Shown: positions 26,498-30,239 of the stretch, in pieces
How the letters are laid out: each line of letters opens with the position of its first letter
How positions within the stretch are numbered: the stretch's first letter is position 1
From: an uncultured Bdellovibrionales bacterium
Lineage (GTDB): Bacteria > Myxococcota > XYA12-FULL-58-9 > JALHOP01
Assembly (NCBI GenBank): GCA_964484195.1
Contig: CAZAER010000001.1
Location: 1,215,754-1,279,753, forward strand
Length of the DNA stretch: 64,000 nucleotides
Direction of reading: 5' to 3'
Translations under genes and position numbers: made by a program
The notes under the pieces: model-generated
The model's input: only the letters and a program-made list of their open reading frames with translations
Told to the model about the DNA's origin: nothing
Database searches by the model: none

Positions 26498-26686
26498 ATG
26501 GCTCTCAAGGTTGCCGCGAAGGAAGTGGACTTCGACCGCATGGCTCAGTTGATCGAGCGGATGCGCGTGAGCGACCCCAAAGCCGAGCGCTGGACCGCGG
26601 CGTTCGACGAGCTGCGCGGCATCATCGCCGCTCAGGGCGTGTGCGACGACAACGTCGTGTCCCTCGAGCTGACACCGGCGGCCTAG
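26498..26686 (+). CDS. Small 62-aa protein upstream of the giant ORF.
   Basis: AGGAGG at 26486-26491 precedes the ATG at 26498 (MALKVAAKEVDFDRMAQLIERM...). The ORF-track start at 26330 gives a junk N-terminus. Confidence 0.5.
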   Translation: MALKVAAKEVDFDRMAQLIERMRVSDPKAERWTAAFDELRGIIAAQGVCDDNVVSLELTPAA

Positions 26687-26786
26687 TCGCGCCGGGGGTG
26701 GACGGATCTCGTCCTGTCCATCGTTCAGCAGCTGATTTCGGCCAGCTCGGAGCACGGTCGCGTACGGCCAGGCGGAGACACCCGCC

Positions 26787-29700
26787 ATGACTGACGTACT
26801 AATTGGCTCTGCATCTTGGGCTCAGATTCAGCACGGAGACGATGGCCCGGCAGCGGCGCCGCCGTCGGCACCCGGCTCCGAGCAACAGCAGCTCGACGCC
26901 CTTCTCTACGGTCAGAACGACAACTACGGGATCGGCGCGCCCATCCTCACGTATTTGCCGGAGGCCAAGGAGGCGGAGCAACCCATCGACCTCGGCCGCA
27001 TCATCGCCGAAGCGCAGCAGCAACGCGGCGAAGATGTCAGGACGGCCGCCCTCAACGCTGCGGCGCAGCTCGCCGCGTCGACCTTCGTCCCTGCGAACGC
27101 AGGGGCAGCGCAGCTCGCTGCCTCGGCGCTCACCGAGCTCGCCGCGAGCTACAACGAAACGACGGCCGCGCAGCTCGACCCCGCTCTCGCGTACTGGACC
27201 AACATCGCCCAACAGCAGCTCGCCGCCGGCAGCAGTGTGGCGGCACCCAGCAGTCCCTTCGCTGGCGTCGGCGACGCCAACGCGACTGGCCAGGAGACCG
27301 TCGCGGGCCAAGCGATGACTGGCGCGCAGTACCTTCAAGACAAGGCCATCGTCTTCGTCACCCGCACGGTCGAAGAAGTGACGTTCCGAGACGTTGGCGA
27401 GAGCTCGTATGCGGTCACGAATCAGGTCCAGCGCCCGTTCGCCGTGACCATCGGCGAAGCCATGCGTGAGCTCAACCTCGATGCCGCGCAGGCCGCCGCG
27501 TATCTCGAGCAAAACGGTGTCTATGTCATCCGCAATGACGTCGCCGGCACGCGGGCCGAGTTCGAGGCCGTCCACGGGCGGGCACCGACTGCCGCGGAGC
27601 GCGCCTACGTCGTGCGCCCGGAGACCATGATGCGGTCGGGCGAGAACGAGGTCGTCATGCCTACGGTCTACGGCACCGCGCAGCAGCACTTGCAGGCGGC
27701 GGGTCACGACCTCGGCGTCTACGCGTGGCTACCGGCCCATGTGATGGCGGCCGCGCGGGCGAATCCCAACGGCAACGTGCTGCTCGCATCGAGCGATCAG
27801 GTGACCACGGTCCAAGCGCATCTCGCCGAGCAAGCGTTGGGCACTTACCTTCTACCCGACGGCAACGCCGGCACACGCGCCGACTTCGAGACCGCTACCG
27901 GTCGGGTAGCGACCGACGCAGATCGCGCCTTCATCGTGCGCGGGCCCGTCCATGAACGCAACGGCGAGAACGAAAACACCTATCCCGCGACGCTCGGTAA
28001 CCAAGCGGCATACCTCCAGGCCATCGGCTTGTCGCCGAGCGCGCCAGGCAATCTCACCATCGCGTTCAACAACTCGCGCGCACGCGGCGGTGACGCGTAT
28101 CTGGACACCTCCCATCGCAGCATCGATATGACCCAACCCAACGCCCTACCCGAGCGCGCCTACCGCGCCGTCGCGAACGACGCGCTCGCTGCCGAGTGGG
28201 TTCAGATCGGCGCCAACGGCCCCATCAACGACGACGTCGCCAAGATCCTCGGTGACGTCTACGCTCGCTTCGGCGCCGACACGCCGGAGAAGCAAGAGAT
28301 CGTCCGCGGCCAGCTCTTCCGCTACGACCCCAGCTACGGCGTCATCGCCAACCGCGAGCTCATCAAGGGCGCGGTGGAGATGAACGACAACCGCCGCCAA
28401 GGCTTCTTCGAGCGCGGGTTCGGACGGGCCCTCTTGACCGTGGCTGCGACAGTGGTCGGTGGACCGGTGCTCGCCGCTGGTGTCAGCGCTGCCTTCGCGG
28501 CTTACGACGGCGGCTCACTCGGTGACATCGCCGTCGCCGGAGCCGCGGCTTATGCAGGGGGCGTCGTCGGCGCCGGTGTCGGCGGCGCGGTGACCTCGTC
28601 GCTCGCAAGCTCGGGTGTGTCCGCTACGGCGTCCGCAGCTGCCGGCGGCTTCGCCCAGGGCGTCGCCAGCTCGGCTACGAGCCAGCTCATCACCACCGGC
28701 AGCATCGATGGCGACAGGTTGTTGCAAGCTGGGGTCACTGGCGGTGTCACCGCGGGAGTCACGACCGGGCTCAACGGTACCGATCTCGTAAACAACATCG
28801 ACACCTCTCTCGGCCTCGCCCCCGGAACCGCCGCGCGGGTCATCGGCGCCCAGGCAGGCACGGTCGCCGGCACCGGTGGCTTCGACTGGGAAGGGGCGCT
28901 GGCAACGCTCGTCGCACAGCCCGCGAGCATCAGGACCGGCACTCCGACCGAGTCCGCCAACGCAGACGTGAACGAGGTAGCCCGCATGTACGAGGTCCTC
29001 GCTGGCAATCCAGACCTCACCGTCGAGATCGACCGCACGCAGAGCGGCGTCGATGTCATCGACGCTTGGTCGCGCGACGGTGAACGGATGACCTTCACTT
29101 TCGTGAACGGCGTGCTGACGGGGAGAGAGACCAACCGCGACCTCGTCGACTCTGGCGTTGGCGCGAGAATGCAACAAGTGAACGCGATGGCGGACGAGCT
29201 GGCCGCGAACCCCGCCCTCCGAGTCATCACGACGAGCGACTACCGCACCGGTGAGCAGCAGCTCACCATCTTGAGCCCGGATCAGCCCACCGTTCAGTAC
29301 AACTACATCAACGGCGAGTTTCATCGCGTCACCTTCCCCGATCAGGAGAACCAGCTGCGACGGGAGATCGACGTGGCGTTCGAGGGCTACGGCGTGCCGA
29401 CGCTCGCGGCTCGACTTTGGTCCGACCGTGCGCTCGCCGGTGAGTCACTCATCTCGCGCGACATCGACCCCGCCTTGGCGAACATGGGCAAGCTCGTGAC
29501 CGTGGCGATGAACGTCTCGGAGCCGGGCAAGAAACCCGAGTACACCGGCTCGGGTGCTCTCGGGGTCGCGACAATCGATGGTGTCGACCGCATCGTCCTC
29601 AGCACGGGCAATCACGTGCTCGACCCGGTCGAGGGCACCGTATTCTCGGCCCGCGATAGCCTTGGCCGCCTCGTCGAGATTCCTTTGGATGGTCAGATCA

Positions 29701-30239
29701 TCAGGTCGCGAGGTGTCATCGGCGACAACGGTCGCATGACCCTCGACAACACCAACGATTGGGGACGCACCGATGGCTACATGGTCACCCTCTCCCCCGA
29801 GACGTTGAACGCCCTACGCCCCGGAACGACGCTGGCTGACCTGCCACGCGTCGGAGCGCCGCCGCCCCGTGACGCGCCCATCGCCCAATTCGGTTTCGCG
29901 GGCTGGGGCAACGTCGACAACGACGGTCAGTACATCGGCGTAAACCTCGTGGGCGCCGCGGGAACCGCGCTCGACCATGGCGACGGCCTCTTCATGACGA
30001 GCATGGCCGTGAGCACGACGAACCCACCAGTCACCGGCGGCATGAGCGGCGGCCCCGTTCTCGTCAAGCTACCCGACGGAACGATACAGCTCGTCGGCGT
30101 GCTCGCTAAAGCGGGCACACGCGACTCGAGCAACGCGTTCGCCAACCTGCAGAACGGCACGAACCTGCCCTCTCACCTCAGCTTCTTTGCGGACCTGAGC
30201 TGGGTGGTCAACGGAGGGAGCTCCGGGGAGGGGCCGTAA
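26787..30239 (+). CDS. Giant 1150-aa protein with no signal peptide, internal repeats, a central Gly/Ala/Val-rich segment and a C-terminal trypsin-like (S1) peptidase-like domain.
   Basis: The ORF is continuous and the composition is good throughout. A roughly 110-aa tandem repeat (AGTRAEFEAVHGRAPTAAERAYVVRPE..GENE. versus AGTRADFETATGRVATDADRAFIVRGP..GENE.) is present. The hydrophobic Gly-rich stretch (GGVVGAGVGGAVTSS...GVTGGVTAGVTTG) spans about residues 560-650. The C-terminus has GGMSGGPVLV...LVGVL, which resembles the GDSGGP serine motif, with candidate His and Asp residues 75-120 residues upstream. Confidence 0.7.
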   Translation: MTDVLIGSASWAQIQHGDDGPAAAPPSAPGSEQQQLDALLYGQNDNYGIGAPILTYLPEAKEAEQPIDLGRIIAEAQQQRGEDVRTAALNAAAQLAASTFVPANAGAAQLAASALTELAASYNETTAAQLDPALAYWTNIAQQQLAAGSSVAAPSSPFAGVGDANATGQETVAGQAMTGAQYLQDKAIVFVTRTVEEVTFRDVGESSYAVTNQVQRPFAVTIGEAMRELNLDAAQAAAYLEQNGVYVIRNDVAGTRAEFEAVHGRAPTAAERAYVVRPETMMRSGENEVVMPTVYGTAQQHLQAAGHDLGVYAWLPAHVMAAARANPNGNVLLASSDQVTTVQAHLAEQALGTYLLPDGNAGTRADFETATGRVATDADRAFIVRGPVHERNGENENTYPATLGNQAAYLQAIGLSPSAPGNLTIAFNNSRARGGDAYLDTSHRSIDMTQPNALPERAYRAVANDALAAEWVQIGANGPINDDVAKILGDVYARFGADTPEKQEIVRGQLFRYDPSYGVIANRELIKGAVEMNDNRRQGFFERGFGRALLTVAATVVGGPVLAAGVSAAFAAYDGGSLGDIAVAGAAAYAGGVVGAGVGGAVTSSLASSGVSATASAAAGGFAQGVASSATSQLITTGSIDGDRLLQAGVTGGVTAGVTTGLNGTDLVNNIDTSLGLAPGTAARVIGAQAGTVAGTGGFDWEGALATLVAQPASIRTGTPTESANADVNEVARMYEVLAGNPDLTVEIDRTQSGVDVIDAWSRDGERMTFTFVNGVLTGRETNRDLVDSGVGARMQQVNAMADELAANPALRVITTSDYRTGEQQLTILSPDQPTVQYNYINGEFHRVTFPDQENQLRREIDVAFEGYGVPTLAARLWSDRALAGESLISRDIDPALANMGKLVTVAMNVSEPGKKPEYTGSGALGVATIDGVDRIVLSTGNHVLDPVEGTVFSARDSLGRLVEIPLDGQIIRSRGVIGDNGRMTLDNTNDWGRTDGYMVTLSPETLNALRPGTTLADLPRVGAPPPRDAPIAQFGFAGWGNVDNDGQYIGVNLVGAAGTALDHGDGLFMTSMAVSTTNPPVTGGMSGGPVLVKLPDGTIQLVGVLAKAGTRDSSNAFANLQNGTNLPSHLSFFADLSWVVNGGSSGEGP

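Follow-up and report, generated by a model that had tools for sequence, protein, structure and literature searches.

Zhang et al. (2012, PMC3482391) set out the hallmarks of polymorphic toxins, among them a constant N-terminal part joined to unrelated C-terminal domains, and MuF polymorphic toxins, in which toxin domains are fused to a phage head protein, are known from temperate phages (Jamet et al., 2017, PMC5576092). Podophages such as P22, T7 and SU10 carry ejection or pilot proteins, and the structure of SU10 is available (PMC9509320). Here we analyse a gene for a protein of 1150 amino acids (aa) in a stretch of 64,000 nucleotides, referred to as the window, from an uncultured Bdellovibrionales bacterium of the Myxococcota (GCA_964484195.1, contig CAZAER010000001.1, positions 1,215,754 to 1,279,753). 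The C-terminal module of the protein is modelled with the fold of S1 proteases, its N-terminal two thirds, which we call the scaffold, are homologous to proteins from phage virion modules, and paralogues carry unrelated C-termini behind the same scaffold. Our favoured reading, to which we give somewhat less than an even chance, is that the protein belongs to a small, undescribed family of modular and polymorphic effector-like Myxococcota proteins built on a phage virion-protein scaffold. The C-terminal fold and the logic of polymorphic toxins are known already; the scaffold family, its phage virion-module homology outside prophages and its S1-type cargo are new.

The open reading frame (ORF) at 26787-30239 is genuine, as the first-pass annotation of the window had held. 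Its G+C content at third codon positions (GC3) is 0.82, like that of the flanking genes, its start is kept in alignments of the homologues as MxD[IV]R[IV]GS, and six full-length orthologues are 55-60% identical to it. That annotation had also described a protein with neither signal peptide nor lipobox, and we agree: no N-terminal hydrophobic segment was found (the Kyte-Doolittle maximum of the first 60 aa is 0.26) and Cys is absent from the same 60 residues, so that there is no Sec signal and no lipobox. Searches of Pfam, NCBIfam, PHROG and PADLOC gave no credible match, and in Pfam and NCBIfam nothing appeared even at E <= 1. The label 'orphan' given to the protein earlier is apt in that its family is tiny and unannotated, but it does not hold for the core, whose homologues include phage virion-module proteins. 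The parts of the protein are as follows, with AlphaFold confidence given as the predicted local distance difference test (pLDDT).

26787..30239, + strand: gene of the 1150-aa protein, complete with stop codon (ORF list)
26787..27251, + strand: N-terminal region, aa 1-155, without signal peptide (alignments, hydropathy)
27255..27275, + strand: F-x-G-x-GD motif, aa 157-163, with F158, G162 and D163 invariant
27327..27722, + strand: repeat A, copy 1, aa 181-312 (self-alignment)
27717..27836, + strand: segment 'VY.WLP...LLASSDQ..TV', aa 311-350 (invariant columns)
27837..28040, + strand: repeat A, copy 2, truncated, aa 351-418 (alignments, self-alignment)
27999..28427, + strand: conserved soluble core, aa 405-547 (alignments, exhaustive HMMER search)
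28428..28886, + strand: Gly-zipper hydrophobic region, aa 548-700 (composition, hydropathy)
28959..29156, + strand: repeat B, copy 1, aa 725-790 (self-alignment; modelled at pLDDT 74-92)
29163..29366, + strand: repeat B, copy 2, aa 793-860 (self-alignment; model)
29484..30215, + strand: predicted chymotrypsin-fold (PA clan, S1-like) serine peptidase domain, aa ~900-1143 (model, Foldseek, profile search)
29613..29615, + strand: codon of His943, candidate catalytic His in an N-H-V motif, invariant in 8 sequences
29772..29774, + strand: codon of Asp996, candidate catalytic Asp followed by a YMVTLS strand, invariant in 8 sequences
30045..30047, + strand: codon of Ser1087, candidate nucleophile in GGMSGGP, with S-G-G invariant and aligned to GDSGGP of S1 enzymes

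The C-terminal module had been called trypsin-like on the strength of its GGMSGGP motif and a plausibly spaced His and Asp, and structure prediction now places it in the S1 fold. A first AlphaFold model, made with 4 sequences, gave a pLDDT below 50 for the protease part; a second model of aa 395-1150, made with 17 sequences, reached a pLDDT of 70-95 across most of aa 734-1150. When Foldseek was run against the PDB, the top 37 matches were all PA-clan (S1/3C-type) proteases, the best with an E value of 4e-6 and a probability of 1.0 and the last with a probability of 0.98, and they included uPA, tPA, matriptase, trypsin, SplA and HAV 3C. A search of BFVD was likewise topped by viral serine (S1) and 3C-like proteases. 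In the window protein the three candidate catalytic residues lie in the motifs STGNHV (His943), TDGYMVTLS (Asp996) and GGMSGGPVLV...LVGVLA (Ser1087). We enlarged a 4-sequence C-terminal alignment to 8 sequences, including the distant P0009 and P0015 (27-33% identity), and N942-H943-V944, D996 and G1085..S1087-G-G are invariant among the 8, down to 27% identity. The 4-sequence profile found no relative in the PDB, whereas the 8-sequence profile, searched against PDB sequences, ranked S1 enzymes first (proproteinase E, earthworm fibrinolytic enzyme and elastase, E 0.045-0.9). HMMER and hhalign placed D..LV.LS, GWG and G.SGGP on the corresponding S1 motifs, and in the profile search the strand after Asp996 aligned to the strand following Asp102 of proproteinase E. 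Neither Pfam (Trypsin, Trypsin_2) nor NCBIfam gave a threshold match for the domain, and P0009 and P0015 had none at E <= 0.1. As modelled, the module is a PA-clan serine peptidase that has diverged far in sequence but keeps the His943/Asp996/Ser1087 set intact.

Compared with solved S1 enzymes, the module has the double beta-barrel fold (Foldseek E 4e-6; TM-scores of 0.45-0.55 on the targets) and the His-Asp-Ser order, with the residues in the contexts xTANHV, D-x-x-LVTLS, GWG and GxSGGP followed by a hydrophobic strand. It differs from them in that sequence identity is only 9-16%, in that Met replaces the Asp of GDSGGP, and in forming the C-terminus of a protein of 1150 aa that lacks a signal peptide. 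As a branch of the chymotrypsin-fold proteases it would be very divergent and undetectable by sequence. UmbA from the Streptomyces umbrella toxin particles (PDB 8w20) also has a trypsin-fold domain within a large toxin assembly, and chains 8w20_C, G and E were among the Foldseek matches (E 1.7e-5 to 4.2e-5). The likeness is one of fold alone, at 15-16% identity and with a match no better than those of ordinary proteases, and the window protein lacks the ALF repeats, the lectin domains and a UmbC-like partner.

The scaffold, which comprises the F.G.GD motif, repeat A, the Y.WLP segment, the core and the Gly-zipper, is preceded by a region of 155 aa with a conserved YLP..D...D..RII.EAQ motif and then an Ala/Gln-rich helical stretch, as seen in the alignments; in the window protein this region is about 150 aa shorter than in the orthologues. 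A duplicated module of roughly 110 aa had been noticed before, and it was recovered here as repeat A, in which the alignment of residues ~243-306 to ~351-414 has a local score of 135, against 29.6 +/- 5.7 for shuffled sequences (z 18.6, reached by 0/300 shuffles). Self-alignment of the homologue P0002 gave a z of 32.5, with both copies about 125 aa long in homologues, and relative to the orthologues the second copy in the window protein has lost its first 54 aa. The core is the most conserved part of the protein, with 68-75% identity among orthologues and the motifs IGL..F.S..GGD, VQIG..GP..DD, GA.TPE.Q, LF.YD..[FY]G and RRQGFFE. An exhaustive HMMER search matched it to Myxococcota and phage proteins at E 1e-36 to 1e-167, and searches of PDB sequences with core profiles and the repeat-A region returned nothing useful.

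The Gly/Ala/Val/Thr-rich stretch reported earlier exists but is longer than the 90 residues or so first assigned to it, extending over about aa 548-700. Gly, Ala, Val, Thr and Ser make up 68-82% of this region and charged residues 9/153, and 33 small-xxx-small-xxx-small motifs were counted in it against 1-5 per 100 aa elsewhere. Two stretches, aa 544-574 and 576-611, are clearly hydrophobic and resemble transmembrane segments. The region is kept in every family member and is among the best conserved parts of the protein, with 63-75% identity; AlphaFold predicts it as helices at low confidence. Weaker matches to it occur in other phage-like proteins, and in seven of these (P0021-P0027), which are otherwise unrelated, the Gly-zipper region contains the stretch 'GGS.GD....AA.SY.GG.VG', which may be a widespread unannotated membrane module.

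Between the Gly-zipper and the protease lies a second duplication, repeat B, which the first-pass annotation had overlooked. It consists of two units of about 65 aa (z 5.7, 0/300 shuffles), each modelled as one helix and four strands at a pLDDT of about 80. A Foldseek search of the PDB with the first model yielded only noise and nothing credible for repeat B. The only lead comes from BFVD, where one match was a phage protein named 'PepSY domain-containing protein' (E 0.014 and probability 0.94), and repeat B has no PepSY match in Pfam. PepSY domains are protease-inhibitory prodomains.

A word-indexed search of 5.8 billion proteins returned 4 relatives of the 1150-aa protein, and a scan of species-representative genomes added 2 more. 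These six orthologues, from Myxococcota metagenome-assembled genomes (MAGs) or metagenome assemblies, have the same whole architecture including the protease. The exhaustive HMMER search, which covered 1.84 billion cluster representatives, produced 25 matches in all, falling into three groups: long Myxococcota proteins, short scaffold-only proteins of 395-660 aa, and weak matches confined to the Gly-zipper. Among the long proteins the shared scaffold is followed by several types of C-terminus. In P0007 (1731 aa) a Pfam PT-TG pre-toxin domain occupies 1130-1183 (E 3.4e-8; 33.8 bits, where the cutoff is 23.5) and is accompanied by a tail of another kind; the tail of P0010 (1142 aa) includes HEAQH, that of P0008/P0028 (954 aa) is of yet another type, and P0009 and P0015 end in a divergent S1-like tail. 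Scaffold and tail meet at sharp junctions. Between P0009 and P0010, which come from different MAGs, identity is 75% over 395 aa, after which similarity stops and an S1-like tail stands opposite the HEAQH tail; P0007 and P0002, both from one MAG, share 43% identity over 626 aa and are unrelated beyond. In an all-against-all comparison the tails of P0007, P0010 and P0028 showed no similarity to the S1 tail, and they are mutually unrelated except for a linker after the zipper in P0010 and P0028 (34% over 50 aa). Each MAG holds about three paralogues: P0002, P0007 and P0009 in GCA_022842935.1, those at loci L005 and L006 together with P0028 in MAG bin.009, and P0005, P0008 and P0010 in the VLC93 MAG. 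Two of them are tandem neighbours, an S1-type member at L006:5238-9488 and P0028, with its other C-terminus, at L006:9522-12473. No second copy of the family was found in the 64-kb window.

These comparisons suggest that the likeness to polymorphic toxins proposed in the first-pass annotation holds at the level of the family, where unrelated C-termini stand behind sharp junctions, but not among the six direct orthologues, whose C-termini are not polymorphic. As in polymorphic toxins, a constant N-terminal part is combined with unrelated C-terminal domains, there are several paralogues per genome with one tandem pair, and one paralogue, P0007, has a PT-TG domain and a small ORF directly downstream; this ORF, of 177 aa, starts 8 nt after P0007 and matches no known family. 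The window protein differs from them in having neither PT-TG nor an immunity gene, and it has none of the known trafficking elements, be it a signal peptide (hydropathy) or a two-partner secretion (TPS), PAAR/VgrG, LXG/WXG, MuF, PrsW or PVC domain (Pfam, NCBIfam); secretion genes are also missing from its neighbourhood. With regard to P0007, we note that after PT-TG, at ~1490-1530 (gene at L008:10001-15196), its sequence reads LGDVQPGDFMLTPDGRIVPLD, resembling the catalytic loop of ABC1/APH-type kinases. The P0007 tail matched PDB 5yjz weakly (E 0.74), and we give no weight to the likeness 'GD..PG.FML.PDG'.

The short scaffold-only proteins connect the family to phages. For P0011-P0014, P0016 and P0018-P0020 the E values of the match to the core run from 1e-16 to 1e-49, and for P0011-P0014 and P0016 alone from 1e-36 to 1e-49. 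The genes of the short forms sit in tightly packed same-strand blocks of podophage-like contigs of 41 to 65% GC. The gene of P0016 (L009) lies downstream of Phage_capsid_4 and SU10-type adaptor genes and upstream of a gene for a 2235-residue LPD-domain protein. That of P0013 (L010) stands directly between an SU10-type adaptor and the head-closure protein Hc3 (phrog_578, E 1e-57), and a 'DNA ejection' PHROG follows three genes past the Hc3 gene:

L010:10001-11302: P0013, short phage homologue

Further copies are present in the IMG/VR viral contigs L011 and L012, the former of which repeats the capsid and adaptor arrangement. The homology spans the F.G.GD motif, which has its counterpart in [FY]xG[YFW]GD near the N-terminus of the short forms, the Y.WLP segment (Y.WLP...LLA in the phage proteins, matching aa 311-350), the core and the zipper. 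Four elements of the Myxococcota forms are missing from the phage forms: a helical extension at the N-terminus, repeat A, which is inserted between the F.G.GD motif and the Y.WLP segment, repeat B, and the C-terminal enzyme. The best-supported origin of the scaffold is thus descent from, or common ancestry with, a podophage virion-module protein. If so, an unannotated protein that several podophage-like contigs encode in their structural modules acquires a name and a role that can be tested. Five of the short forms (P0011, P0012, P0014, P0016 and P0020, not P0013) also carry similar basic '(K/Q)LG.K.(D)P' motifs at both ends, as in MKLGSKVD...LGRKVG and MQLGKQLTPP...TLGKQLVPPKK; these are absent from the long Myxococcota forms and could be processing or interaction sites.

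The short homologues resemble the podophage ejection proteins in that they carry hydrophobic segments and in that their genes follow those of the capsid and the SU10-type adaptor in the late structural module, and from these features we infer an ejection role for them. They differ in having no match among isolated phages (tblastn of the core and P0013 against 50,697 phage records) and no matching or annotated PHROG family, and the window gene itself lies on the chromosome and has more than twice the length of theirs. The MuF toxins offer a parallel in that there, too, an N-terminal part homologous to a phage virion-module protein is fused to variable toxin-like C-termini. Here, however, the scaffold is not MuF (no Pfam match) and has a Gly-zipper, and the genes of the long forms are neither in prophages nor beside terminase or portal genes.

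Given this homology and the precedent of toxin domains fused to the MuF head protein, the protein might be a structural component from a remnant or domesticated prophage, or of phage particles encoded elsewhere, into which it would be packaged and from which it would be injected, as proposed for MuF toxins. We consider this very improbable. The window and six other Myxococcota loci are ordinary chromosomal contexts, and no phage genes were seen within ~10 kb at the seven loci or among the scanned genes of the 64-kb window; codon usage is host-like, and the long forms add an N-terminal coiled coil, repeat A and C-terminal modules that the phage versions lack. For the window gene itself, a prophage origin was rejected in view of the genomic context.

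In the reading we favour, a polymorphic effector-like protein on a phage-type scaffold, the Gly-zipper helices would associate with or insert into a membrane, in the manner of phage ejection or pilot proteins, and this would allow the scaffold to export or present its fused cargo without a Sec signal. The cargo of the window protein would be the two helix-plus-four-strand domains followed by the chymotrypsin-fold serine protease, which is expected to be active and could either degrade target proteins or process the 1150-aa protein itself. If true, predator-rich Myxococcota would possess a new family of modular effectors whose trafficking domain is undescribed in any database, and a phage virion protein would serve as the constant part of swappable toxins for a second time after MuF, in this case, unlike MuF, detached from any prophage. 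It is tempting to go further and to speculate that core and Gly zipper form a self-sufficient membrane-crossing device that was taken from a podophage ejection protein and became an apparatus-independent trafficking module in Myxococcota, a ninth delivery mode of polymorphic toxins with S1 protease, PT-TG-linked and metallopeptidase-like domains as interchangeable cargo, although we regard this stronger version as unlikely.

The Gly-zipper might instead be the weapon itself. The protein would then be a colicin-like, pore-forming bacteriocin, released by lysis or delivered by contact, whose zipper makes a lethal ion channel like the Gly-zipper ionophores of type VI secretion systems (T6SS) and contact-dependent growth inhibition (CDI), with the protease in an accessory role such as self-processing. 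The conservation of the zipper, the only element present in all members including the weak matches, and the very high density of its small-xxx-small motifs fit such a channel, as does the missing signal peptide, since colicins have none either. Yet the 1150-aa gene has no gene for a small membrane immunity protein beside it, the zipper also occurs in the short phage forms, which are non-toxic to their own production host, and the variation of the C-terminal enzymatic domains suggests that it is the cargo and not the zipper that diversifies, so that we hold a pore-former to be decidedly doubtful.

Several observations weigh against an effector on a phage-type scaffold. No secretion, phage or immunity gene was found near the 1150-aa gene; an immunity gene was sought downstream, but the next gene (30273..33110, - strand) is convergent and 33 nt away. 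The C-terminus is identical in type across the six direct orthologues, and all family sequences compared come from MAGs or metagenomes. Core and Gly-zipper were modelled (aa 395-1150) at a pLDDT of only 35-65, so that a membrane-inserting device receives no structural support from the model. A virion role of the short phage homologues, in turn, is no more than what their gene position and hydrophobic character suggest. The cargo is an S1-like protease, and in the text of PMC3482391, the 2012 catalogue of polymorphic-toxin domains, the word 'trypsin' occurs 0 times. It is because neither an immunity gene nor a delivery apparatus was found, and because the scaffold model is of low confidence, that we put our reading a little below an even chance.

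Some of these observations would suit a resident protease that stays in the producer, with its large cytoplasmic N-terminal domain and its protease domain anchored to the membrane by the two hydrophobic stretches, and acts in regulation or quality control. Such an enzyme needs no signal peptide, immunity gene or secretion system, its C-terminus would be conserved as it is in the six orthologues, and it would stand, as this gene does, among ordinary signalling and housekeeping genes, which in the window include two PilZ-Ser/Thr kinases, RNase H, a response regulator, a HerA-like ATPase with DUF6901, an EAL protein, a sigma-70 factor, a transporter of the major facilitator superfamily, an RTX protein and an OmpA protein. 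We nevertheless think it improbable. The earlier annotation would have been undermined by ubiquitous homologues in conserved synteny; instead, the family is very rare, with its 25 matches in 1.84 billion representatives, and synteny is not conserved, which argues against a housekeeping role. Paralogues that swap C-termini at sharp junctions, one of them with PT-TG, and a scaffold homologous to phage virion-module proteins also speak against a resident protease.

With respect to delivery of an effector, scans of the window genes against protein families bear out that the window is devoid of secretion-system genes. The neighbours of the homologues, which had been proposed as a place to look for T6SS, extracellular contractile injection system (eCIS) or outer-membrane-exchange genes, were no different: no such apparatus genes were seen in the window or at the homologue loci, and of the corresponding markers PAAR, VgrG, MIX, DUF4157 and a lipobox none was found (Pfam, NCBIfam, hydropathy). 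Downstream genes differ across all S1-type loci. The homologue loci have no common neighbour save an ATP-grasp-like gene, which lies directly upstream and on the same strand at 3/6 orthologue loci:

L002:309-1274: ATP-grasp-like gene
L003:7100-8077: ATP-grasp-like gene
L006:4160-5125: ATP-grasp-like gene

These genes encode proteins of 321-325 aa with 74-77% mutual identity and a weak match to YheC/D ATP-grasp (E 5e-5 to 1.5e-3), and their product might modify the large protein or a peptide. At L006 the gene precedes the tandem pair of family members, a possible three-gene cassette. The window has no ATP-grasp-like gene.

A short gene precedes the 1150-aa gene:

26498..26686, + strand: 62-aa gene with AGGAGG 6 nt before the ATG and a GC3 of 0.89

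It had been proposed as a small upstream partner, and this idea has to be given up. The only homologue was found at L003, 63% identical and two genes from the large gene, and none is present at L001/L004, L005, L006, L008 or L014; L002, with 308 nt of upstream sequence only, was excluded from the comparison. The 62-aa protein has no credible match in Pfam, NCBIfam, PADLOC or PHROG. It is a real gene and a syntenic neighbour, not a partner of the family. We also rejected a role as chaperone or immunity protein of the family or as an ATP-grasp-modified peptide, given its absence elsewhere and the lack of an ATP-grasp gene in the window.

The remaining observations concern other genes of the window. 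The 945-aa product of the convergent gene (30273-33110, - strand), a protease-like surface protein, has a signal peptide and matches to PPC and to the P-domain of proprotein convertases. It also contains a Cys-rich region like that of disintegrins and an InhA-like MAM domain, and at its C-terminus a hydrophobic segment and an Arg-rich tail of the MYXO-CTERM type. An overlapping pair at 18574-20795 (- strand) encodes the HerA-like ATPase (HerA_C, E 9e-211) and the DUF6901 protein (E 3.5e-76). About 11-14 kb downstream of the 1150-aa gene lie genes for a DUF4265 protein (41137-41598, + strand) and for the RTX protein, which has HemolysinCabind repeats (42546-44372, - strand). Finally, the two PilZ-Ser/Thr kinase fusions (10317-11693 and 23950-25248, both on the - strand) are encoded within 15 kb, and the EAL protein is encoded at 11823-13154, which suggests a local link between cyclic di-GMP and kinase signalling.

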